Shown: positions 210-44,573 of the stretch, one piece after another
Layout: every line of letters starts with the position of its first letter
Numbering within the stretch: the first letter of the stretch is position 1
The notes under the pieces: model-generated
The model's database searches: none
What the model was told of the DNA's origin: nothing
What the model saw: only the letters and a program-made list of their open reading frames with translations
Made by a program: the position numbers and the translations under genes
Virus record (IMG/VR): IMGVR_UViG_3300049012_000071
Span: 1 to 64,000 of that record
DNA: 64,000 nucleotides
From: a virus
Taxonomy: Duplodnaviria > Caudoviricetes
Direction: 5' to 3' (one strand)

Positions 210-791
210 TCAGTCACCCCAGCCGATGGTCCCGCTGATCTGTGGGTCCAACGTGATGCCGTAGCGCGCGAGCCCCGAGAAGCCAGCATTCATCGGCGAG
301 TCCACGTGGCGCACTCCAAGAGACGCCCTGAGCGACACGCCTCGCGTGGGCTCGTAGGCGATGCCAGGAGCTACGCGGACCTGCGTCCCCCACACCCGAG
401 CGGGCCACCCCCAGTTGGTCACCATCGGCCACTGACCGTAGTCAAGGCCGACCATCGCCGTCCCGTACAAGCCCCACGCGTCAGGCACGGTCGGCAACGG
501 GAAGGTAGCGCCCACCTCTGGGCCTGCCAGAACCGCCATCCAGTACCATGACGAAAAATTGAACGCCGTGACGCGGGCGCCAGCGACGATGCTCAGGTGC
601 CCGCTGCCTCTGGCAATCGGACCGTGCACGAACAGTTGTGGCGCTGGTCCTCCGGTAGGCCGTTCGTCGCCCACGATGAGATAGGACAAGCCTGCTCCGG
701 CGGTCCACTTCGTAGGCTTCTCCTGCTGGGCCATCGCGGACGTCGTCGCCGTGAGCATCACGATCGCGCCGAGTGCAGCAACGAACTTCAT
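210..791 (-). CDS. Secreted protein, possible small outer-membrane beta-barrel
   Basis: Signal peptide (MKFVAALGAIVMLTATTSAMA) followed by alternating Gly/aromatic strand-like segments; overlaps the stop of the upstream gene. Confidence 0.6.
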   Translation of the reverse strand: MKFVAALGAIVMLTATTSAMAQQEKPTKWTAGAGLSYLIVGDERPTGGPAPQLFVHGPIARGSGHLSIVAGARVTAFNFSSWYWMAVLAGPEVGATFPLPTVPDAWGLYGTAMVGLDYGQWPMVTNWGWPARVWGTQVRVAPGIAYEPTRGVSLRASLGVRHVDSPMNAGFSGLARYGITLDPQISGTIGWGD

Positions 792-1471
792 CGGTCACCC
801 CCGTGATCGGGCGGCGCCGGCTCCTGCCACGTGCCTGGATCCGTAGGGTCGTCTGGGCATCCGTCGATCTCCAGAGGACACAGGACCCCCATGCGCCCCA
901 GCAAGCCGACTGCGGCGAGTATGGCCTGGATCTCAGGCGGCGGCGGCTCGTGCAGCCCGAGGATGACCCGGATAACGTCGCTCAGGTCGTGCTCGCTTTC
1001 GTCGTAGTACGGGTCTTCTTCCGGATGAAAGCTCGGCGTCCATTTTATGTCCTCGTAGTCGCGGCCACATGTTGGGTGCTCGCCGGTCGGGTTGGCCGAC
1101 TTGAATTCGACGAGGCGCTCGCGTATGAAATCACTCGCGCATGTGAAGTATGTATTGGTCGAGCTTTTTAGCAGACAGTCGAGCATGTCCTCGACAAGGA
1201 AGTCGTACTTGACCTCCGGTTTCTTGTCGTCCTCGTCGGCGAAGCACTCAACCGTGCCGATCTTGAGCGTCTGCCGCTTCCCGGACAAGCGACCCTGCGC
1301 AAATCGGTTCGCAGCGAATCGCTTCAGCCGATCCATTTGGTCGTCGGATAGGCTGACAGCCATCCGCGTTCCTTGCTCCCGCAGCGTGTCGTCGTCCAGC
1401 ATAGAACATCCGGCGAACACGAACACGAGCCCGAGCGCCGACGGTAGCAGTAGTGATAACGATCTTCGCAA
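788..1471 (-). CDS. Putative lipoprotein
   Basis: Hydrophobic leader ending in lipobox FAGC; GGAGGA RBS upstream. Confidence 0.65.
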   Translation of the reverse strand: MRRSLSLLLPSALGLVFVFAGCSMLDDDTLREQGTRMAVSLSDDQMDRLKRFAANRFAQGRLSGKRQTLKIGTVECFADEDDKKPEVKYDFLVEDMLDCLLKSSTNTYFTCASDFIRERLVEFKSANPTGEHPTCGRDYEDIKWTPSFHPEEDPYYDESEHDLSDVIRVILGLHEPPPPEIQAILAAVGLLGRMGVLCPLEIDGCPDDPTDPGTWQEPAPPDHGGDR

Positions 1472-1679
1472 CGTTCCTCCTCTCCCGCACCATCGCGGGC
1501 GCCCGACCCCGCGCGCAGGGGCAGGCGTCCACGGTGCCGCCGCGGTCGCTGCGACGGCACAAACAAGAATCGGACCAAGTCCGCTCGATCTGATTTCGCG
1601 CGGTTATCGGCGATGCCGTGAGACGACTCGGTCACTCTTGGCCGAGACCAGGTCAGATCTGGCCTGTTGCCGACCCCGC

Positions 1680-1889
1680 TCACTCCGCGACGACTTCCTC
1701 CCTGCCGAACTCCTCCACGCGCCCCGCCACGCAGACCCGCGTCCGCCCGTCGCTCGCACGCCCGACCAGCTCGCACGGGATCTCGACGACCTGCCCGCGG
1801 CACCGCGCCAGGACCAGCCCGTCGCGCTCGACCCGCAGGCCCTGCGCCAGCCACGTCGCCTCCAGCACATCGACGCTCCTCACCAGCAT
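1680..1889 (-). CDS. Small hypothetical protein
   Basis: ATG at 1889 (MLVRSVDV) with GGAGGGG RBS. Confidence 0.5.
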   Translation of the reverse strand: MLVRSVDVLEATWLAQGLRVERDGLVLARCRGQVVEIPCELVGRASDGRTRVCVAGRVEEFGREEVVAE

Positions 1890-1966
1890 CAGCCCCTCCG
1901 ACGCGGCGAGCCCAGTCTGGCATGGCCAGCCGAGTTGCGGCGGGATGGGATGTGGCGGCGCGAACG

Positions 1967-2317
1967 TCAGGCGGTGGAGGTCCGCTGCCGGGCCTCCCGC
2001 GCCTCGCGGCGGCACCGGCGCGCCGTGACCAGACAGGCCGTGAAGAGGAGCCGATCGTGCCGGTACCACCGCGCCTCACGCAGCACCTTGCGCGCCCGCT
2101 CGTAGAGCTCGGCGATGAGGGCTGCGCGTCGCCGTGCCCTGGCGCGCTCCCTGGCGTCGATGGCGATGAGCGCGAGATCGAGCGCCCACATCCTGAGGGC
2201 GGTCGCCTCCTCGCGTCGCCCATAGCTTTCGCGCTCCTCGGCGAGACGGATCGCGCGCCGTGCATCCGCGGCGTTGTGGCGAGCACGCATGTAGTAGTCG
2301 CTGATGGTGGTCGTCAT
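1967..2317 (-). CDS. Arg/Ala-rich hypothetical protein
   Basis: ATG at 2317 with GGAGGG RBS. Confidence 0.6.
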   Translation of the reverse strand: MTTTISDYYMRARHNAADARRAIRLAEERESYGRREEATALRMWALDLALIAIDARERARARRRAALIAELYERARKVLREARWYRHDRLLFTACLVTARRCRREAREARQRTSTA

Positions 2318-2386
2318 GGGTCCCTCCACGGCCGAAGGCCCGCCGGGCCGGAGCTGGGCGGGCTGCTGAACGACCGCGGCCTCGGT

Positions 2387-2812
2387 TCACTGCTCGTCGA
2401 GGATGTGGCGCGAGGCGTCCTCCGGGCAAAGCGACCACGTGACGCGCGATCCGGGGAAGGTGAACGCCCCGCCGGCGCCGCGGTGCACACGCACGCCGCG
2501 CACAGTGAATTCGCCGCTCGGGAGCTTGCACAGCTCGGTCGCGAGCGCGCCGACATCGTTGGCGCTGCTCGGCGCCTTCGGGATCTCGACCACCACGTGC
2601 CGGATCACGCGGTACTCGATCCGCCCCTTGCTCGCCTTCGCGTTGATCGCCTCCACCCACCCGAGCGCATCCCGCTCGGACGAGAACGGGAGATCGTTCT
2701 CGATCATGCCGTTCAGGATGTGGCCGGGCATGAACTCCTGCACGTAGACGAGCAGGTGGGAGTACGGGGTCTTACGCGAAACGTGCTTCTCGATCCGCCC
2801 GGAGATATCCAT
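2387..2812 (-). CDS. Hypothetical protein, first gene after the leftward promoter
   Basis: GGAGGAGG RBS; protein-like composition (MDISGRIEKH...). Confidence 0.7.
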   Translation of the reverse strand: MDISGRIEKHVSRKTPYSHLLVYVQEFMPGHILNGMIENDLPFSSERDALGWVEAINAKASKGRIEYRVIRHVVVEIPKAPSSANDVGALATELCKLPSGEFTVRGVRVHRGAGGAFTFPGSRVTWSLCPEDASRHILDEQ

Positions 2813-2854: not shown

Positions 2855-2883
2855 ACTTTGGCCACAACATGGCCAAACGTCAA
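2855..2883 (-). promoter_or_regulatory. Leftward sigma70-type promoter with palindromic operator O1
   Basis: Minus strand TTGACG-17bp-CAAAGT; palindrome TTTGGCCA-N5-TGGCCAAA in the spacer. Confidence 0.65.
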
Positions 2884-2934
2884 GCTGGCCAGTGCGCTTT
2901 TCTTCGAGTCGACCGGTCGTCGGTGGCACGGGAC

Positions 2935-2963
2935 TTGACTTCGGCCACGGCGTGGCCAAGTCT
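2935..2963 (+). promoter_or_regulatory. Promoter/operator O2 upstream of the RHH gene
   Basis: TTGACT-17bp-AAGTCT containing TTCGGCCA-N5-TGGCCAAG. Confidence 0.6.
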
Positions 2964-2970
2964 CAGCCGG

Positions 2971-3324
2971 GTGACGCAGCAGAAGACGAAGGCCCCCAAG
3001 ATGGGACGGCCGCCCGAGCCGATCCCGAGCGACGCCAGCAAGGCCCGCGTGCGCTTCCGTGTCCCGTCGCGCGTCCTGAGTCGGTTGGACGACATGGCGG
3101 CGGACGCATACCGAAAGCGGCCGGCCGAGGTGCTTGAGGCCCTGCGCGCGTACTTGGCACCCAAGAAGCTGCCGCCAGCGCCAGAGGCGCATGAGGATGG
3201 GGAGGAAGTGCGGGTCCAGCTCCCGGCCGCCCCCGTGCGAGAGCTCGACAGCCGCTCCTCTCCCGAGGAGCGAGACGCGCGTATCGCGGATGCCGTGGTG
3301 CGCTGGACGCAGACGAAGCGGTAG
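2971..3324 (+). CDS. Ribbon-helix-helix DNA-binding regulator, probably tandem RHH
   Basis: GRPP motif, then RVRFRVPSRVLSRLDDMA...EVLEALRAYL, and a second EVRVQLPAAPVRELD...RIADAVVRW unit. Confidence 0.65.
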   Translation: MTQQKTKAPKMGRPPEPIPSDASKARVRFRVPSRVLSRLDDMAADAYRKRPAEVLEALRAYLAPKKLPPAPEAHEDGEEVRVQLPAAPVRELDSRSSPEERDARIADAVVRWTQTKR

Positions 3325-3358
3325 ACGGTGTCTCACGGAAGAAAGTGGTGTGGTCCGG

Positions 3359-3386
3359 TTGACTTTGTCCATTACGTGGCCAAAGT
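3359..3386 (+). promoter_or_regulatory. Promoter/operator O3 for the rightward small-gene operon
   Basis: TTGACT-16bp-CAAAGT containing TTTGTCCA-N5-TGGCCAAA; ATG at 3393. Confidence 0.65.
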
Positions 3387-3392
3387 AGAGGC

Positions 3393-3752
3393 ATGCCCCG
3401 TCGCCCCGCATCCCAGGACTGGCTCGGCACCCCGGAGCAGGCTCTCAAGCTGCTTCGCGTCGAGTACAGCTACCTCCTCGCCGCGCCGGCTGCTCGCCTC
3501 TGTGGCCGGCCGATCTGCCGCCATATCGCCCATGTTCGCGCGCTGCGGTCGATCCCGGGCAGCTACGCCCGCCGGCTCGGCGTCCTCTGCGCGGCGGCTC
3601 CGGCGGAGAAGCGCGCGGCGATCAAGGCGGCGTTCTCGGAGCTGCTCCCCGCCGCCACGCCGCCACCATGCGCGGCGTGGCGGATGGCACGGAGTACGCC
3701 TTCGAGGTCACCGTCTCTGGCGCCGATGGCTTCTACCCGGCCGACCAGGTGA
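3393..3752 (+). CDS. Hypothetical protein
   Basis: ATG directly after the O3 promoter; the 3' end overlaps the next ORF. Confidence 0.5.
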   Translation: MPRRPASQDWLGTPEQALKLLRVEYSYLLAAPAARLCGRPICRHIAHVRALRSIPGSYARRLGVLCAAAPAEKRAAIKAAFSELLPAATPPPCAAWRMARSTPSRSPSLAPMASTRPTR

Positions 3753-3910
3753 TCCTCGACTCGGCGGGCGGCGACGGCGTGCGCCGGCTCGCCTACTGCC
3801 GCCGCGTCCCCGCTGACCGGCAGGGCGCCGAGGAGCTCCGGGAGCAGCTGGAGCGCGAGGCGTGGGACGCGGGCGCGGAGCACGTCGACGTGCGCGTGAG
3901 GGCGGCGTGA
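3668..3910 (+). CDS. Small acidic hypothetical protein
   Basis: Protein-like composition (TEYAFEVTV...EHVDVRVRAA). Confidence 0.5.
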   Translation: MRGVADGTEYAFEVTVSGADGFYPADQVILDSAGGDGVRRLAYCRRVPADRQGAEELREQLEREAWDAGAEHVDVRVRAA

Positions 3911-3928
3911 GCCGCGGAGGGGACTCGA

Positions 3929-4120
3929 ATGCCCAGGAATCAGCCGAAGAGCAAGGCCGACCGAATCGCTCACGCCGAAGCCGAGGCCGCTAGGCACCTC
4001 GGCAACTACAACGAGGAGATCGCGCGCGGAGCAGTCAAGACGGCCGAGAGGAGCCTTGACAAGGCACAACGCTGGCTGGACAAGGCCAACGACCTGCGGG
4101 GCTGGGGCGAAGGCCGATGA
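3929..4120 (+). CDS. Small hypothetical protein
   Basis: GGAGGGG RBS; ATGA overlap with the next gene. Confidence 0.65.
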   Translation: MPRNQPKSKADRIAHAEAEAARHLGNYNEEIARGAVKTAERSLDKAQRWLDKANDLRGWGEGR

Positions 4121-4335
4121 GCGCCGCCCCTGCCCTTGCCGCCGCCCGCCGCTGCATCGCTGGTGCCATGCGTGACCCCGGCGCCGCAGCCGGCCTGCTG
4201 GGCAGGGCCATCGACTACATCAACGCCGCGCTGCTCAGCGTGACGCCGAAGACGCCGGCCGCTGCGCGCGCGGCCATCCAGGCGGAAGCCGACGAGCTGT
4301 CCACGTACATCCAGTGCTTCGAGGAGGGGACATGA
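4117..4335 (+). CDS. Small hypothetical protein
   Basis: Coupled on both sides by ATGA overlaps. Confidence 0.6.
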   Translation: MSAAPALAAARRCIAGAMRDPGAAAGLLGRAIDYINAALLSVTPKTPAAARAAIQAEADELSTYIQCFEEGT

Positions 4336-4757
4336 ACACCGCAGAAACCGAGTCCAGAGCCTGGGCGCTCCTGGCGCAGATCGCCGAGCACGTCCGCTTC
4401 TACCGGCCGCACCTGTACGCCTTCGTCTGGTCGCGCGACGCCGCCGACAGGACCGTGCCAGAGCACCTCCGCCTCATGGGCTGGGAGCTGGCCTGGCTCG
4501 CGGCGTCCGAGAGCGACGAGTTTGTCGAGCTCGTCCAGCGCGCGCTCGCGTGGGCGTGCTCCGGCGACGGCTACGCGACGCGGGAGATCGTTGGGCGCTT
4601 CCGCGGCGCCGTCCGGATGGCGCGCGTCGTGACAGCGAGGCACCCGGAGGAGAGCCGGCCGCACATCCTCATCGGCATCATGGAGCGGTGTCACGCGACG
4701 GCGGGGAGGCGGTCGGTGACGCGGATGACCAGAGAGGTGGCGGCGGAAGCGTGTTAG
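4332..4757 (+). CDS. Hypothetical protein
   Basis: GAGGAGG RBS; coupled start. Confidence 0.65.
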   Translation: MNTAETESRAWALLAQIAEHVRFYRPHLYAFVWSRDAADRTVPEHLRLMGWELAWLAASESDEFVELVQRALAWACSGDGYATREIVGRFRGAVRMARVVTARHPEESRPHILIGIMERCHATAGRRSVTRMTREVAAEAC

Positions 4758-4846
4758 TCGGTGGACGAGACGCAGAGTCTGTGGCAGACCACGTATCCGC
4801 GCCGGCCCGTTCGCGGCGCGAACAACTCAAGAACTTCGGAGGCGAC

Positions 4847-5566
4847 GTGAGCGGAACCGACGAGACCATCATCTATTCGCCGAGCGAATCCGAGCTGGCG
4901 TACTTTGCCGAGGAGGCTCGCAAGGACGAGGAGCGGCGCCAGCACGAAGCGGAGGGGCTACGGAAGCTCGCGGCCCGTTTCGCGGCTGACCCGAGCGCCG
5001 CCGGGCGCTGCGCCCGCATCCTCGCGAGGCTCGCCTCGGACTCGTCGTCCTACTGGGACGCGCGTGATGTCGTGCGAGAGCGGCAAGTGCGCCACATGGG
5101 CACGTTCGACGAGTCCACCACGGATGGTGACCTTGAGGCGATGTGCGGGGCCGGGCTCCTCGAGGCGGAGGAGCGCAACGACGGAGACGAAGACGCGCCG
5201 CCGACGACGTTCTGGGGCGCCTACGCCGTGCGCAGAGACGATCTCGAGGAGATGCTGATGCTCGGGACCGAGCGCTGGCTGGCGCAGAAGATCGCCGCGG
5301 CGTCCCGGGAGCCTGCCGCCGAGGCACCTGCGCCGGGCGCCATGCGGCCCGAGACGCGGCGGCGCATCGAGGAGGCGGTGCGGATCGCGCCGGTCCTGAC
5401 GGGGACTCGTCCTGCCGCGACGTACATCGAGCGGGCCGAGGACGCACTCTTCCTCGCGCGCAGCCCGCGGGCCGCTCCGGAACAGGCCGCCGAGTTCGTC
5501 GCAAACGCCATCGCCTACCTCGTGCGCCGGCTGGAGCTCGAGGCGCCGAAGGATGAGCCGAGATGA
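4847..5566 (+). CDS. Hypothetical protein
   Basis: GTG start with GGAGG RBS; coupled to the next gene. Confidence 0.6.
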   Translation: MSGTDETIIYSPSESELAYFAEEARKDEERRQHEAEGLRKLAARFAADPSAAGRCARILARLASDSSSYWDARDVVRERQVRHMGTFDESTTDGDLEAMCGAGLLEAEERNDGDEDAPPTTFWGAYAVRRDDLEEMLMLGTERWLAQKIAAASREPAAEAPAPGAMRPETRRRIEEAVRIAPVLTGTRPAATYIERAEDALFLARSPRAAPEQAAEFVANAIAYLVRRLELEAPKDEPR

Positions 5567-5760
5567 ACAAGCGATTCAGCAAGGCGACGGTGCTGGAGTA
5601 CATCGAGCAGCGCGCGACCAAACTTCAAATGGAGCACCGACTCGACCCGCACAACGGATGGGCACAGGTCGAGTACCGTGACACGGAAGCCGCCGTGGCC
5701 TATGGCGAGTTCCGCGGGCTGCTCGATCTGCGTGACGCCATCGAGGAGGGCGACCTGTGA
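5563..5760 (+). CDS. Small hypothetical protein
   Basis: ATGA/GTGA coupling. Confidence 0.65.
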   Translation: MNKRFSKATVLEYIEQRATKLQMEHRLDPHNGWAQVEYRDTEAAVAYGEFRGLLDLRDAIEEGDL

Positions 5761-6101
5761 CCATCTCCCCCTCCAAACTCGCCGCCGCCCGCCTCGCTGC
5801 CGCGGAGGTCTTCATCACCGATGGACTCCAGGGGACGAACTGGACGAATCCTGATGGACTGAGAGCCCTTGCCGAGGTGGCCGGCTTCTCGGTCTGGTAT
5901 CGGCTGGACGAAGCTGCCGGCGCGTGGGTCGACGTCCGGGAGCGAGAAGATGGCCTGCGCGTGAGCGTGACGGTTCGTGGATTTCGAGACCTGGCTGTCC
6001 ACCGAGCCATCGAGGCGGCGGCCGTTGTCGCCAAGGCGGCAGAGATCGCCCGCAAGGTCGAGGCAGCCATCGCGAAGGTGGCGGAGGCGGCCGCCCCGTG
6101 A
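5757..6101 (+). CDS. Hypothetical protein
   Basis: GTGA coupling. Confidence 0.6.
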   Translation: MTISPSKLAAARLAAAEVFITDGLQGTNWTNPDGLRALAEVAGFSVWYRLDEAAGAWVDVREREDGLRVSVTVRGFRDLAVHRAIEAAAVVAKAAEIARKVEAAIAKVAEAAAP

Positions 6102-6418
6102 CCACCTTCCGTCTTGCCTCGCACCGGCGCCTCGTTGCCGACCCTCGCCGCGGGCGGCTGCTGCTCCAGGCGGCCTACGTGGCGACGGCGGACGCCGATG
6201 CGATCTGGGACCAATACGCGTGGCCGCCGGTGTCGTTCGAGTCGCTCTCGGAGGAACAGCGCGCCGAGATCGACCGGTTGCGGGCGCTGTCGGACGAGCT
6301 CGCTGCGGACGCTGCCCGGCTCGGGGTGCGCGGCGGCATCCGGGAGGCGTTCGGCGAGGTGTTTGCGGCGGCGGCGAAGATGGATGTGCGGGAGCAGAGG
6401 GAGGAGCGAGCGGCATGA
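6098..6418 (+). CDS. Hypothetical protein
   Basis: GTGA/ATGA coupling. Confidence 0.6.
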   Translation: MTTFRLASHRRLVADPRRGRLLLQAAYVATADADAIWDQYAWPPVSFESLSEEQRAEIDRLRALSDELAADAARLGVRGGIREAFGEVFAAAAKMDVREQREERAA

Positions 6419-6726
6419 GGAGGAAAGCGGGGCAGGAGCAGAAGGTGGCCGAGGCTAAGCCCACCACGTTCTCGACGTGGCTCGACTTTGCCAACGTGGG
6501 GCAGGTGTGCATCGAGGTGCACGAGCGCGACGGCGTGAGGGTGACCGTGGAGCGAACCGATGGCGGGTTCGAGTCCCGGAGCCTCGGGGAGGAGAAGAAC
6601 CGCGAGCTCCACCGCGCCCTCTCCGCCTACATGGAGCCGCGCGAGAAGGCGCGCCTCCAAGCCGAGGCGCTGGCGAAGCTCTCGCCGGCGGAGCGGTGGG
6701 CGCTCGGGCTGGAGGAACGACGATGA
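6415..6726 (+). CDS. Hypothetical protein
   Basis: Coupled; ends in a common phage motif ALAKLSPAERWALGL. Confidence 0.6.
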   Translation: MRRKAGQEQKVAEAKPTTFSTWLDFANVGQVCIEVHERDGVRVTVERTDGGFESRSLGEEKNRELHRALSAYMEPREKARLQAEALAKLSPAERWALGLEERR

Positions 6727-7022
6727 CCAAGCTCACGCCCCTCATCCCCGCCATGGCCGCGCACCCGGTCATGGCTGCCGCTGCGCAGCGGGCGCAGGCG
6801 CGCGAGGAGACCATCGCCAGGATCGCGCTCCTCGTGGGCGACCGCGGAGAGGCGCAACGCGCGGTGGAGCTGGCAGAGCGCGTCGGCTTCGACGCCAGCG
6901 CCATTTACAACATCGCCGCGCGCGGGGAGCCGCTGCCGAAGACGGAGGACGAGCTCCGGGCCACGGGCGAGGTCGGGCGCCGACGGGCCGAGGACCTCGC
7001 CAGGATCCTGGGGCTCCTGTGA
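6723..7022 (+). CDS. Hypothetical protein
   Basis: ATGA coupling. Confidence 0.6.
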   Translation: MTKLTPLIPAMAAHPVMAAAAQRAQAREETIARIALLVGDRGEAQRAVELAERVGFDASAIYNIAARGEPLPKTEDELRATGEVGRRRAEDLARILGLL

Positions 7023-7336
7023 ACCAGGACCAGCGCGCCGCCCTCCTCTCCGCCCTCGCGACCCGCGTCGCGTGCACGGTCTGCCACCACGAGGCCGGAC
7101 GCGACCGCCACCACGGCAACCACCGGCTCGACATGCACCACGCGCCGGTCCTCGGTTCGGTGCCGCTCAGCGGCGGCTACGGCTCTACGCTGGAGTGGTG
7201 GTACGCGCGCGACGCGGTGTCCTGGTACGCCTGGTTCAGGCACCCGGACGGCCGCGAGGAGGTGCTGCGCCGCTGGCCGGACGGGCGGAGCGAAGCGGTG
7301 ACGCTGGAAGCGGCGCGGGGCGGAGGCAATCCATGA
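7019..7336 (+). CDS. His/Cys-rich hypothetical protein
   Basis: GTGA coupling; CTVCHH...HH...HH. Confidence 0.55.
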   Translation: MNQDQRAALLSALATRVACTVCHHEAGRDRHHGNHRLDMHHAPVLGSVPLSGGYGSTLEWWYARDAVSWYAWFRHPDGREEVLRRWPDGRSEAVTLEAARGGGNP

Positions 7337-7614
7337 CGTGTTCGTGTTGCGAGGCGAGTGTCCACGATTGGAAGGCGAGCAACTGGGTAGAGGAGGCGCT
7401 CCGCCAGCGCGGCGCCTGCGAGGAGTGCGGGCGCGAGGTGGCCAAGAGCGTCCTGGAACTCGTGCGCCAACGCGACGCCATGATCGAAGAAGGCGTCCAC
7501 CCGACGATCGCGCATCACGCCACCGTTGGCACGGCGCGGACACGGTACATGGACGCAGCCAAGGCGTACGAGGCTGTACGGCGCGGAGTGAAGACCGGGA
7601 GCGCGGCAAACTGA
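7333..7614 (+). CDS. Small Zn-finger protein
   Basis: CSCC...CEEC; ATGA coupling. Confidence 0.55.
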   Translation: MTCSCCEASVHDWKASNWVEEALRQRGACEECGREVAKSVLELVRQRDAMIEEGVHPTIAHHATVGTARTRYMDAAKAYEAVRRGVKTGSAAN

Positions 7615-7778
7615 CCGGCGATCGACGCTAGCGCAGCGGCGCGGAACGACGCGACCAACAACGGCGGGATCGGCCATGTCTGTGGATGATTCCGTAGAGG
7701 TAACGGCTGGTTAGCGACGCGACCAAGGATTCGCTCGGTGCCACGCAACCCGCCCCGCGCCCGCGTCGACATCCAGGC

Positions 7779-7982
7779 ATGCGCGACCTATCCCACGACG
7801 ACCTGGAAGACCTTGCTGCCCTCGCTGACGCCGCCCTTGACGAGCCCGTCGAGACGCTCGTGGTGCCGCATCCCGCTGCGCCCGGCGTGCTGCTCGAGGT
7901 GACCGTCGACGGCGGCGGGATCCTCGCGGCTACGTGGCGCCTCGGGGACGCGTGGCGGGCGGCCGAAGTGGGGGAGGGGTAG
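7779..7982 (+). CDS. Small acidic hypothetical protein
   Basis: 67-aa ORF ending at a hairpin. Confidence 0.5.
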   Translation: MRDLSHDDLEDLAALADAALDEPVETLVVPHPAAPGVLLEVTVDGGGILAATWRLGDAWRAAEVGEG

Positions 7983-7984
7983 GG

Positions 7985-8011
7985 CAGTTGTTGCGGGATG
8001 CGCAATAACTG
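7985..8011. terminator. Hairpin between convergent genes
   Basis: CAGTTGTTGCG-GGATG-CGCAATAACTG, an 11-bp stem with one G-U pair; no U-tract. Confidence 0.5.
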
Positions 8012-8013
8012 GG

Positions 8014-8283
8014 CTACCGCCGCAGCGCGGCGAGAGCTCGCTTCGCGTCGGCTATCCGACTCGCGAGGGCGACCCCGTTCTTGCCGCAGATCGCGGCATG
8101 CGCGAGCGCCGCGTTGACCTCCGCCTTGCCGAGGGCGGAGGCGACCTCGCGCATGGGGATGGAGGCAAGAACCCTCGCGTCGCCCATGGGAGTCGCGCTG
8201 AACGCGCGGTCGACAGCGCCCATGACGCTGTTGTTGTACTGAATTTCGTGAATTTTCATGGCCTCGTCTAGCGTAATCGCCAT
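8014..8283 (-). CDS. Stand-alone hypothetical protein
   Basis: CAGGAG RBS; AT-richer upstream region. Confidence 0.6.
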   Translation of the reverse strand: MAITLDEAMKIHEIQYNNSVMGAVDRAFSATPMGDARVLASIPMREVASALGKAEVNAALAHAAICGKNGVALASRIADAKRALAALRR

Positions 8284-8540
8284 CGCATACTCCTGTTGAA
8301 TACAACCAGCGTCGTCGCGCTCAACCGCTGCGCGCAATCAATGATCTTCACTCCCCTAAAAACCTGGGATCGTGCAACTGCTAAATGCACAAACGCGATC
8401 CGTGCGCCTCCCGTGCGCGCCAGCAGCTGCGAGGTCAAGTGGCTATCGGACTGGTCACTGAACCGCCGCTCACCACCCCATCCCGATCTGCCGCGGCTCG
8501 GGCTGCCGTCGCGCCGTGGGCACCAGCCTTTCTGGCGGCC

Positions 8541-37451: not shown

Positions 37452-37523
37452 CGTAACTTAACGATAATTTAGACGTCACGTTGGCCAACCTTGACGCTGT
37501 TCTTAACTTGAGTTAAGTTAAGG
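37452..37523 (+). promoter_or_regulatory. OR operators and PR promoter
   Basis: Perfect CTTAACTT-N5-AAGTTAAG at 37502-37522; degenerate CGTAACTT-N5-TAATTTAG at 37452-37472; TTGACG-17bp-TAAGTT. Confidence 0.8.
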
Positions 37524-37525
37524 CC

Positions 37526-37810
37526 ATGCCCAAGAAGCCGAGCCCCGGCGCCGCGCTGCGGCACATGATCGAGGCCGCCAAGTCCCTCGACCCGGAACTC
37601 ACCGACTCAGCCGTCGCGCGCGCGATCGGCGTGTCCCAGCCGGCGCTGACCAGCTGGTGTGATGAGGACAAGACCCCCACCGCCAGGAACAGGCTGGCCA
37701 TCGAGCGGTGGATGAGCGGCCTGCTGGCGGCCCTGCCGAAGGCGTGGACCGACATCGAGGCCGCCGATGTCGCCGCGAACGTCACTCCGTTCACCGCCAA
37801 GGCGAGCTGA
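37526..37810 (+). CDS. Cro-like HTH protein, probably leaderless
   Basis: TDSAVARAIGVSQPALTSW...P; ATG 7 nt after the -10 element, no SD. Confidence 0.75.
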   Translation: MPKKPSPGAALRHMIEAAKSLDPELTDSAVARAIGVSQPALTSWCDEDKTPTARNRLAIERWMSGLLAALPKAWTDIEAADVAANVTPFTAKAS

Positions 37811-42389: not shown

Positions 42390-42729
42390 CGTCACGGTGG
42401 ACCAGATCGTCGAGCGTGTGGTCGCGGTGCTGCGTCCTGAGCTGGACGCCATCCGCCAGCTCGTCGAGCGCTCTCCCGTTCCGGGTAACGACGCCCAGAC
42501 GGGCCAGCTCCTCACGCGCGAGGAGCTCGCCGCAGCGCTCCGCCTCAGCGAGGCGACGCTGAAGCGTTGGGACCAGGACGGCTGCCCGCGCGTGCTCATC
42601 GGCAACCGGCTCCCGCGATACCGGCTCGCCGACGTTCTGGCATGGCGCAGCACGGCGCCGTCGAAGCCGGCGCGGGTCTCGGCGGTGAAGCCCGCGCCCG
42701 TGCGGCTGCTCTCGCGGGGGAGGAGGTAG
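42382..42729 (+). CDS. xis: Excisionase (AlpA/HTH_17-like)
   Basis: LLTREELAAALRLSEATLKRW..GCP..PRY..DVLAW, immediately upstream of int. Confidence 0.75.
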   Translation: MRDVTVDQIVERVVAVLRPELDAIRQLVERSPVPGNDAQTGQLLTREELAAALRLSEATLKRWDQDGCPRVLIGNRLPRYRLADVLAWRSTAPSKPARVSAVKPAPVRLLSRGRR

Positions 42730-42731
42730 CC

Positions 42732-44573
42732 ATGGGCAGGCCCAGGACCGGCAACTTCAAGCTCATCAACGGCACGTGGCACGTCCGCAACACCGTCGAG
42801 CCCGGCGTGCGCAAGACGTTCGACATGGGCACGTCCTCGCTCACCGAGGCGAAGCGCCTGAACAAGCAGATCCTGGCGAGGATAGCAAAGGGCGAGAGCC
42901 TCGACGACCTCGCCGAGGCCGCCGCCTCGCCGGGGACCTTCGCCGAGTACGCCAAGACGGTGAACGACCGCCGCCGCGCGCGCGGCATCGTGAGCGCGAC
43001 CGACGAGTGGCAGCGCCTCCGCGACCACGCCTTCCCCATCGTCGGCGGCATGACCCTCCGCGACGTCAGGCCGCGCCATATTCGCGACGTCCTCGAGGCA
43101 GCCGTCGCCACCGGCGCCGCGCCGCAGACGATCCGCCACCTTCGTGCCGCGATGTACAAGGTGTTCCGCTCCGCGGTGGTCGACGAGCTCGTCGAGGAGA
43201 ACGTCGTCGCCAAGGTCGACCCACCCGCCGGGGTGCGCGTGAAGAAGGTCCGCGTTCAGCTCACGGACGATGAGTTCTCGCGTCTCATCGACCACCTGAC
43301 CGAGACCATCGAAACCGAGGATGCCGATGCGAAGGCGGCTGCGGCGCCGACGTGGATGCGCAACGCGCGCACACGCGCCGCGTATGACAAATGGCGGCCG
43401 CACATCGAGGCGTGCGCCGCGTCCGGCATGGACCACGTCGCGTATGCGAAGCAGCACCGGCTTCGATCCGACGTCCTCCTCGGCTACATCCGACGGGCGC
43501 AGGACTACAGCAGCCGCGAGCAGGCGCGCGTCTTCGGCCGGCGGACACCAGCTGGCGAACTCCGGATGCTCGCGATCGGCGCCCGCACCATCGGCGGGCA
43601 GCGCACCAGCGACCTCATCCGCGCCGACTGGCTCAACTTCGACCTCCCGGCGTTCACGCGTGGGATCGTCGTCAGCAGCAAGACCAAGAAGCCGCGTCCG
43701 CTCCTCATCCCTGATGAAGTGCGCCCGCTCCTCATCGACTGGTGGCGGCGCAGCGGGTCGCCCACGCACGGCCCGGTCTTTCCCGTCCTCCGCGGCCCGA
43801 GGCTGGGGCAGCGCCGGCGCGAGCGCGGCGTCTCGTTCGCTGCTCGCCTTCGGACCGCGTGTCGCGCGGCCGGGCTTACGCGCCCAGGGCTCTACGAGGA
43901 GACCGACTACACCCTGCCGGCGGACTTCCACAGCTTCCGCCGCGCCTTCGTGACGGCACTGCGGCGCGCAGGCGTCCCCGCCGATGTGGCGATGAAGTTG
44001 AGCGGTCACTCCAGTCGCGAGATCCACGAGATCTACGTGGGCGACGACCCGGCCTTCCAGGCAATGCCGGCCGGCGCAATCCCGCGCCTTCCCAACCTGA
44101 GCCTGACGTCACAGGTGGTCCCGCTGACTCTGCCCGGGGCTTCCGCTTCTGCCTCGCTCGACGGCGAAACCGCCATCGTCCAGCGAGATCCCTCGCGCGC
44201 CACGCAGGATTCGAACCTGCGGCCTTCGGCTCCGGAGGCCGACGGAGAGAGCTCAGAGGAGCCTCCAAGTACCTGTCCTGCGCCTCTGGCGCGGGACGAA
44301 AGCAGCTCAGAAGAGCTCACGGCGGCTCACGGCGGATCAGGGTTTCGGCTTTTTCTGCCACAAGGATCCGACGTGTCCGGAGCCATTCCGCCACGGGTTC
44401 CGCCGCACCGAAGCGAGCGGGCTGGGCAGCGGCTGGAGGAGGGGCTCCGGGTGGCCATGGGTCCTGGCCCGGTGCGGGTCCGCGAGGAGCGTGTCCTTGA
44501 GCTTCTCGCCGGCGCCTGCGCTGACCTCTGCCTGACCCCCTCGCGCTCCGGCGCGGCTGGAGGTGGCCGGTGA
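42732..44573 (+). CDS. int: Tyrosine integrase with internal attP and long C-terminal tail
   Basis: GQRTSDL (R), SSKTK (K), FHSFRR, SGHS, EIY; GGAGG RBS. Confidence 0.92.
   Translation: MGRPRTGNFKLINGTWHVRNTVEPGVRKTFDMGTSSLTEAKRLNKQILARIAKGESLDDLAEAAASPGTFAEYAKTVNDRRRARGIVSATDEWQRLRDHAFPIVGGMTLRDVRPRHIRDVLEAAVATGAAPQTIRHLRAAMYKVFRSAVVDELVEENVVAKVDPPAGVRVKKVRVQLTDDEFSRLIDHLTETIETEDADAKAAAAPTWMRNARTRAAYDKWRPHIEACAASGMDHVAYAKQHRLRSDVLLGYIRRAQDYSSREQARVFGRRTPAGELRMLAIGARTIGGQRTSDLIRADWLNFDLPAFTRGIVVSSKTKKPRPLLIPDEVRPLLIDWWRRSGSPTHGPVFPVLRGPRLGQRRRERGVSFAARLRTACRAAGLTRPGLYEETDYTLPADFHSFRRAFVTALRRAGVPADVAMKLSGHSSREIHEIYVGDDPAFQAMPAGAIPRLPNLSLTSQVVPLTLPGASASASLDGETAIVQRDPSRATQDSNLRPSAPEADGESSEEPPSTCPAPLARDESSSEELTAAHGGSGFRLFLPQGSDVSGAIPPRVPPHRSERAGQRLEEGLRVAMGPGPVRVREERVLELLAGACADLCLTPSRSGAAGGGR
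44194..44244 (-). other. attP: attP core: 3' half of tRNA-Arg(CCG)
   Basis: Minus strand TCGGC-CTCCGGA-GCCGA (anticodon CCG), GCAGG-TTCGAAT-CCTGC (T-arm), GTGGCGC-G; no D-arm or 5' half. Confidence 0.88.
44315..44334. repeat. Tandem GCTCACGGCG x2, candidate integrase arm sites
   Basis: Exact 10-bp tandem about 70 bp from the core; a TTCCGCC pair follows near 44386-44404. Confidence 0.45.

Follow-up and report, generated by a model that had tools for sequence, protein, structure and literature searches.

Near the left end of the phage record studied here, a gene for a small ribbon-helix-helix (RHH) protein lies between three 21-bp palindromes, each of which is placed within a promoter-like frame. 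Judging from the sequence, we find it moderately likely that this protein is an autoregulated repressor, which occludes its own promoter, a leftward promoter in front of at least five orphan genes, and a rightward promoter in front of about 13 orphan genes. The pairing of protein and operators is suggested by their adjacency and their geometric fit. The most economical reading is an autorepressed circuit that gives a burst of expression and then shuts off. An independent circuit of this kind had already been proposed in the initial annotation of the locus, and we retain it. Its logic is known from P22 Arc, Reg576, Aca14 and AvtR, and by our comparison it would here be built from a new protein family.

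The window, that is the whole stretch of DNA that was analysed, comprises the first 64 kb of a linear 101,652-bp IMG/VR virus record, with a GC content of 69.5% and a completeness of 81% as estimated by CheckV. The record encodes a tyrosine integrase, RecT, DUF5131, a helicase and two sigma-70-family factors, and genes of structural size occupy 45-101 kb. The gene content is that of a temperate tailed phage, and a host among Sorangium-like myxobacteria, which are soil bacteria, would fit the presence of an RHH homologue in Sorangium sp. So ce118. The three-operator locus is situated near the left contig end, at the far end of a long leftward early operon, and ~34 kb away from a CI-type switch at about 37.4-37.5 kb. 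A megablast search with 12 kb gave no match.

The palindromes follow the pattern TTTGGCCA-N5-TGGCCAAA. With up to three mismatches allowed, this pattern had exactly three matches in the window, while 0.06 matches were expected by chance (dinucleotide shuffles, n = 100, none of which reached three). A looser form of the pattern, run over the whole 101,652-bp record, retrieved no site beyond these three. The initial annotation had listed three copies of the motif; their number and positions were correct, although the second and third are imperfect. Operator O1 (2857-2877), which belongs to the leftward promoter, is a perfect 8-N5-8 palindrome with no mismatch. O2 (2940-2960) belongs to the promoter of the regulator gene and has two mismatches (TTCGGCCA...TGGCCAAG), and O3 (3364-3384), of the rightward promoter, has one (TTTGTCCA); all three lie in the promoter spacers. 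Every 21-bp operator consists of two TGGCCA boxes, each a 6-bp palindrome in itself, with their centres 11 bp apart; in O1 the boxes are read at 2859-2864 and 2870-2875. When the sites are aligned in promoter orientation, the N5 spacers vary (CAACA, CGGCG, TTACG), as do the flanks and the sequence further downstream, whereas TTGAC and the boxes are conserved.

TGGCCA as such is not over-represented in the whole record (46 copies vs 34 expected from base composition). Five of the 46 copies fall within 520 bp, inside 2859-3377, and one of them is an additional box that stands alone, at 2886-2891, and precedes the leftward -35 box by 2 nt. Two boxes in the operator arrangement, when one core mismatch at most is tolerated, are present in the record only at O1-O3 and at 72510-72526, in coding sequence; by our own estimate, ~0.4 such positions are expected by chance. 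The site at 72510-72526, outside the window, reads TGGCGA-N5-TGGCCA at a stop/start gene junction, and has neither TTGAC nor T/A flanks. It is probably not an operator but a chance-level occurrence. The centres of O1 and O2 are 83 bp apart, or ~7.9 helical turns, and co-operation of the two through looping is possible.

Beyond this record, the operator pattern had three matches in IMG/VR, all in contigs of ~41-42% GC without an RHH homologue, and 101 single matches in JGI metagenomes, none of them beside a convincing homologue. In one JGI contig (L068), a weak tblastn match 1.7 kb from the motif was judged to be chance and was discarded. A reading of the palindromes as RNA hairpins or terminators was also rejected: the substitutions in O2 and O3 are non-compensatory, a U-tract is missing downstream, and the fold of O3 is no more stable than those of shuffled sequences (z -1.5).

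A TTGAC -35 box abuts each of the three operators. The palindrome occupies the whole spacer of 16-17 nt and extends into a -10-like hexamer. The position in the spacer directly after the -35 box and the direction of the frames, one facing left, one towards the RHH gene and one towards the rightward operon, had been described at the outset, and we could read them at every site. The predicted promoter P_left (2855..2883, minus strand) has the -35 box TTGACG at 2883..2878, a 17-nt spacer and a -10-like CAAAGT at 2860..2855. Its transcripts would start near 2848 and carry a leader of ~36 nt, with GGAGGAGGA-N7-ATG at the start codon at 2812. P_RHH is predicted at 2935..2963 on the plus strand, with TTGACT (2935-2940), a 17-nt spacer and a -10-like AAGTCT (2958-2963), which is separated by 7 nt from the GTG at 2971. 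P_left and P_RHH are divergent and lie 52 bp apart. The third predicted promoter, P_right (3359..3386, plus strand), combines TTGACT (3359-3364), a 16-nt spacer and a -10-like CAAAGT (3381-3386), and 6 nt lie between this hexamer and the ATG at 3393.

The -10-like hexamers are weak, with three of six consensus matches, and all three have an A at position 2 and a T at position 6. Their conserved AAGT lends no independent support to the promoters, because it also forms the outer end of the extended palindrome. A generic sigma-70 promoter scan reported nothing in 20 kb apart from the CI switch, and no promoter at O1-O3; we judge such a scan too strict for a phage of 70% GC, and do not read it as evidence against them. 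The gene at 3393 provides a further indication. Its ATG is the sole possible start of the ORF and the GC3 frame signal is clear, but the gene has no usable ribosome-binding site, the only purine-rich stretch (GAGG) ending 1 nt before the ATG. The P_right mRNA is probably leaderless, and a leaderless mRNA would need a promoter exactly at the position of P_right.

The two cargo promoters share an A-rich element, GAAGAAA(A)G, which is absent from P_RHH. It is found as GAAGAAAAG at 2897..2905 on the minus strand and as GAAGAAAG at 3338..3345 on the plus strand, at an identical distance of 13 nt upstream of the -35 of P_left and P_right, respectively. Because this element occupies an UP-element-like position in a genome of 70% GC, the cargo promoters would be stronger than P_RHH. 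The likeness between P_left and P_right extends over about 60 nt (about -60 to -7), A-rich element included, and part of it could stem from a duplicated cassette.

This likeness also suits a reading without any repressor, in which a promoter cassette was copied three times and the palindromy of an early promoter core, possibly read by a phage sigma factor, is incidental. The phage does encode two sigma factors, and the right palindrome arm doubles as the -10-like hexamer. A promoter core, however, has no need of dyad symmetry, and O1 is a perfect 8+8 palindrome. Moreover, the -35-proximal box mirrors the -10-proximal box at three of three sites, and the N5 spacers vary while both boxes are kept. 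A sigma-specific promoter would also be expected elsewhere in the 101 kb, where none was found. We thus consider a bare promoter cassette very unlikely.

The interpretation of O1-O3 as working promoter-operator composites is best supported by an internal comparison, because the promoter of the CI switch shares the same design. Its rightward promoter consists of TTGACG (37491-37496), 17 nt, TAAGTT and 6 nt before the ATG at 37526, and it looks leaderless as well. The spacer holds a palindrome of its own, CTTAAC-N4-GTTAAG at 37503-37518. As the initial annotation had stated for the CI operator, this sequence is distinct from the motif of O1-O3.

The gene between the operators was initially called an RHH gene, and this call holds by fold, not by a family match; what the gene encodes is a single-chain double RHH protein. 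The protein had no Pfam match at E <= 0.1, TraY included, and no PHROG family match, and the curated RHH models (RHH_1/CopG, PF01402) had no six-frame match in the record at E <= 0.01. An exhaustive phmmer search over 1.84 billion representatives yielded only nine relatives, to which a profile search added two. All of them come from Logan soil-type assemblies or from NCBI, among them MGK3981233.1 from Sorangium sp. So ce118 and a homologue with 87% identity (P0004). One distant family member, P0011, carries PF01402. Related loci were sought in viral and genome contigs with the protein, P0005, P0009, P0014, P0008 and the phage sigma factor as queries, and none was found; a tblastn search against INPHARED phages was likewise without a match.

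The family alignment displays a strand-helix-helix pattern in two repeats. Compared with the PDB, the family profile matches CopG-type RHH chains with repeat 1 (E 2e-4 to 7e-4). AlphaFold2, provided with the family alignment, returned a model with a pLDDT of 90.8 and a pTM of 0.83. In this model, repeat 1 comprises a strand (14-21) and two helices (23-35 and 40-52), followed by a linker, and repeat 2 comprises a strand (68-75) and helices 76-85 and 88-105. In Foldseek, the top ten matches were all TraY chains from the relaxosome of the F plasmid, the lowest E value being 3e-4. The VIA-align comparison with TraY gave a Z of 11.8 and an rmsd of 2.4 A over 99 of 107 residues, at a sequence identity of 15-18%. 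Further structural matches were a permuted single-chain Arc (Z 8.2), DndE (Z 8.2), AvtR (Z 5.7) and VirC2 (Z 4.2), while CopG matched repeat 1 alone. By the fold of the model, the protein belongs to the RHH (MetJ/Arc) superfamily. The protein family is new, and the single-chain double-RHH fold class is rare but known.

Many RHH proteins are antitoxins, and the best PDB sequence match of the family profile is the antitoxin EndoAI. The protein could accordingly be imagined as the antitoxin of a toxin-antitoxin module, or as a ParG/omega-like centromere binder of a partition module, with the next gene as its partner. Omega-type RHH proteins also regulate several promoters, which would suit such a role. 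Yet in place of a toxin-binding tail the protein has a second RHH unit, and the next gene (3393-3752), which had no match among toxin families, is equipped with a promoter and an operator of its own. For partition, a ParA- or ParB-like neighbour is missing. A module of either type is extremely unlikely.

The start of the regulator gene (2971..3324 or 3001..3324, plus strand) can be placed in two ways. From the GTG at 2971, which is also IMG's call, the protein would have 117 aa and its mRNA would possibly be leaderless. From the ATG at 3001, it would have 107 aa, and a GAAGG-N8 ribosome-binding site is present upstream. Most homologues have 3-14 mostly basic residues before a conserved GRPP, which fits the GTG; both starts are equally possible. 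A form of 151 aa from the ATG at 2869 was rejected, as the ORF would then include the gene's own promoter, and no homologue has more than 14 residues ahead of GRPP.

In the proposed repressor circuit, each monomer, which contains a whole RHH 'dimer' in one chain, would read one TGGCCA box through its two-stranded sheet. A single-chain RHH unit suits a palindromic 6-bp box because the sheet is pseudo-two-fold. Counted from the ATG at 3001, the residues of the modelled sheet that would face outwards are R16, R18 and R20 in the first strand, together with E69, R71 and Q73 in the second. In our reading of the model, the four arginines would be matched to the four guanines of TGGCCA. At each 21-bp operator, two monomers would bind along the same face of the helix with an offset of 11 bp, similar to the two Arc dimers on their operator, and the conserved N-terminal GRPP arm could contact the T/A flanks via the minor groove, comparable to the arm of TraY.

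The bound protein should repress, because the boxes lie directly against the -35 and extend into the -10, with a normal spacing of 16-17 nt between the two hexamers. MerR-type activators, which bind in the spacer, require over-long spacers. The bound protein would block or stall RNA polymerase at P_left, P_RHH and P_right. When no repressor is present, either in a fresh infection or because the protein was lost, all three promoters would fire. As the protein accumulates, it would close the best operators first, that is O1 (perfect) and O3 (one mismatch), both of which control cargo. P_RHH would close last, with O2 as the weakest operator (two mismatches), and the resulting steady level would keep the cargo off. 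The operator in the repressor's own promoter is the most degenerate and O1 is perfect, a layout that would be expected if autoregulation set a repressor level at which the cargo promoters stay shut, and one that would also give a burst upon entry into a cell without repressor. The graded affinity of the operators, the direction of regulation and the start sites are all predictions from the DNA.

The palindromes could instead serve another protein, a host factor or another phage regulator, and the TraY-like double RHH protein could be architectural, for example by bending DNA at an origin, packaging or recombination site. This would be consistent with TraY as the best structural match, given that TraY is a relaxosome accessory protein binding as a train of monomers. 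In addition, the pairing of protein and sites is positional, and a half-site spacing of 11 bp suits helix-turn-helix dimers too. However, the RHH protein is the only recognisable DNA-binding protein among the ~19 ORFs of the locus, and no relaxase, replication or packaging gene is nearby. The three sites lie in the same register inside -35/-10 frames, with none elsewhere in the record, and a box that is itself a 6-bp palindrome goes well with the two-fold symmetry of the RHH sheet. A different partner for the palindromes is in our view quite unlikely.

The cargo of the putative circuit is formed by two sets of orphan genes. To the left, the first gene (2387..2812, minus strand, placed by its GC3 frame) encodes 141 aa, and ~4 further orphan ORFs follow at 210..2386 on the minus strand. 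This leftward set of at least five genes spans 2812 to at least 210, and the operon runs towards the contig end. To the right, the GC3 frame plot and the ORFs delimit an operon of about 13 small, tightly packed and overlapping orphan genes (3393..7614, plus strand). None of the ~18 cargo ORFs matched a family in Pfam or PHROG. The first leftward gene had no relative besides itself in 5.8 billion clusters, and for the first gene of either operon the ESM Atlas provided no usable lead. The rightward operon ends near 7614, where it meets the leftward ORFs 7515-7772 and 8014-8337, which are situated at the tail end of the long early operon. Across this convergent stretch (7515-8337), we found no convincing intrinsic terminator.

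Contigs with ~86% identity to 3393-4201 were detected in root and soil metagenome runs, one of which is an RNA-seq library; the reads of four runs were compared, and the contigs obtained do not cover 2769-2902. In the ~86% relative, the homologue of gene 3393 is preceded by a canonical GAGGAG ribosome-binding site and by unrelated upstream sequence, which replace the operator. Because the upstream region differs, cargo and promoter cassette are separable modules.

The initial annotation had compared the locus to an Aca, or anti-CRISPR, architecture. This label is unsupported, because no cargo gene matches any Pfam or PHROG family, and the gene order is not that of a usual acr-aca operon. As a rival reading, the same circuit could nevertheless be run by an Aca-type anti-defence regulator that times anti-CRISPR or counter-defence genes in the two cargo operons. 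This would be in line with the nature of the cargo, whose numerous orphan genes are small, closely packed and placed at the margin of the early region; the cargo is also mobile, since relatives of 3393-4201 occur behind a different upstream region elsewhere. There is also a precedent in the RHH regulator Aca14, which represses its own and the neighbouring operon via inverted repeats in promoters (10.64898/2026.07.27.740549). Against it, known anti-defence families are included among the Pfam and PHROG families that no cargo gene matches, and the regulator lies outside any acr operon, ahead of the cargo and with a separate promoter. The protein lacks an HTH, its sequence could not be related to known regulator families, and small orphan early genes are equally typical of host takeover or superinfection exclusion. 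An Aca-type role is therefore possible but unlikely.

Several known systems resemble the repressor circuit proposed here, although no membership in the Arc/Mnt, Reg576, AvtR or TraY families was detected at the sequence level. The operator of P22 Arc reportedly measures ~21 bp, with two subsites about one helical turn apart, and lies in the core of divergent promoters. In the immI region of P22, the RHH repressors Arc and Mnt act at Pant and Pmnt, in a second regulatory region apart from CI, and Arc is made from a promoter that Arc then shuts off (PMC2724298). Our locus would be alike in having an RHH operator in divergent promoter cores, as read from the sequence, far from the CI switch. Unlike the locus described here, where both RHH halves are in one chain, P22 has Arc and Mnt as separate chains of 53-82 aa, which form a dimer and then a tetramer on DNA. 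Further differences are three operators here vs two, another operator sequence, and the lack of a recognisable antirepressor gene in our locus.

A similar timing is known from Reg576 of the Bacillus plasmid p576, an autoregulated RHH repressor acting on four promoters, its own included (PMC6294495). Upon entry into a new cell, the establishment genes are de-repressed until enough repressor is made, and two RHH modules per operator, in different operator configurations, lead to graded responses (PMC6294495). Reg576 is a conventional dimeric RHH protein with a dual TTATCCC heptamer operator and a cargo that includes the anti-restriction gene ardC, whereas the cargo here is orphan. Aca14 is an RHH regulator that binds inverted repeats overlapping promoter elements and represses its own and the neighbouring operon (10.64898/2026.07.27.740549). 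It is a homodimeric RHH protein with a helical extension, is located inside acr operons and uses an AT-rich inverted repeat. Compared by description, our protein differs by its single-chain double RHH, its own promoter and the absence of a known acr gene.

Two further comparisons concern single-chain RHH proteins. AvtR of Acidianus filamentous virus 6 has two tandem RHH motifs in one chain and binds DNA as a monomer (PMC5569661). It represses its own gene and regulates a neighbour, filling strong sites first and degenerate ones later (PMC5569661). AvtR belongs, however, to an archaeal virus with archaeal promoters and spreads over ~100 nt of DNA, and its structural match to our model is moderate (Z 5.7). 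TraY of the F plasmid is a monomer with the whole RHH-dimer fold in one polypeptide, whose N-terminal arm reaches the minor groove, and neighbouring monomers bind adjacent sites (10.1101/2024.12.19.629322). Like TraY, our protein combines two RHH units in a single chain. TraY acts at oriT as an accessory factor of the relaxosome, whereas our locus has no transfer genes and its neighbours are orphan phage genes.

If the proposed circuit is true, the natural single-chain RHH regulators, which are few in number (TraY, AvtR, VirC2), would gain a bacteriophage example. The logic of regulation as such is already well documented by P22, plasmid p576 and the Aca systems. To our knowledge, gene control in myxobacterial phages is almost unstudied. 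The locus would, if the circuit is true, offer a compact regulatory part for these phages, consisting of a small protein, a defined operator of 21 bp and a set of three promoters that differ stepwise in strength. The ~18 orphan genes would also be marked as a co-regulated early set, and hence as candidates for host-takeover or anti-defence activity.

Two further observations concern the lysogeny region. At 37482-37487, 3 nt before the -35 box of the CI-switch promoter, there is a single TGGCCA box, comparable to the one at 2886-2891 next to P_left. It could reflect cross-talk between the two switches, or chance. A more far-reaching scenario, quite improbable as a whole, would have a TraY-fold RHH protein of an undescribed family act as an immediate-early timer. 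This timer would gate two islands with ~18 genes for counter-defence or host takeover, and would also contact the lysogeny switch through the box at 37482-37487, so that a second layer of immunity would be linked to the first one. Separately, ARAGORN detected a tRNA-Arg(TCT)-like sequence at 44195-44292 (minus strand), inside the integrase ORF (42489-44573). This sequence may be the core of an attachment site within the int gene; the myxophage Mx8 reportedly also has its attachment-site core embedded in int.
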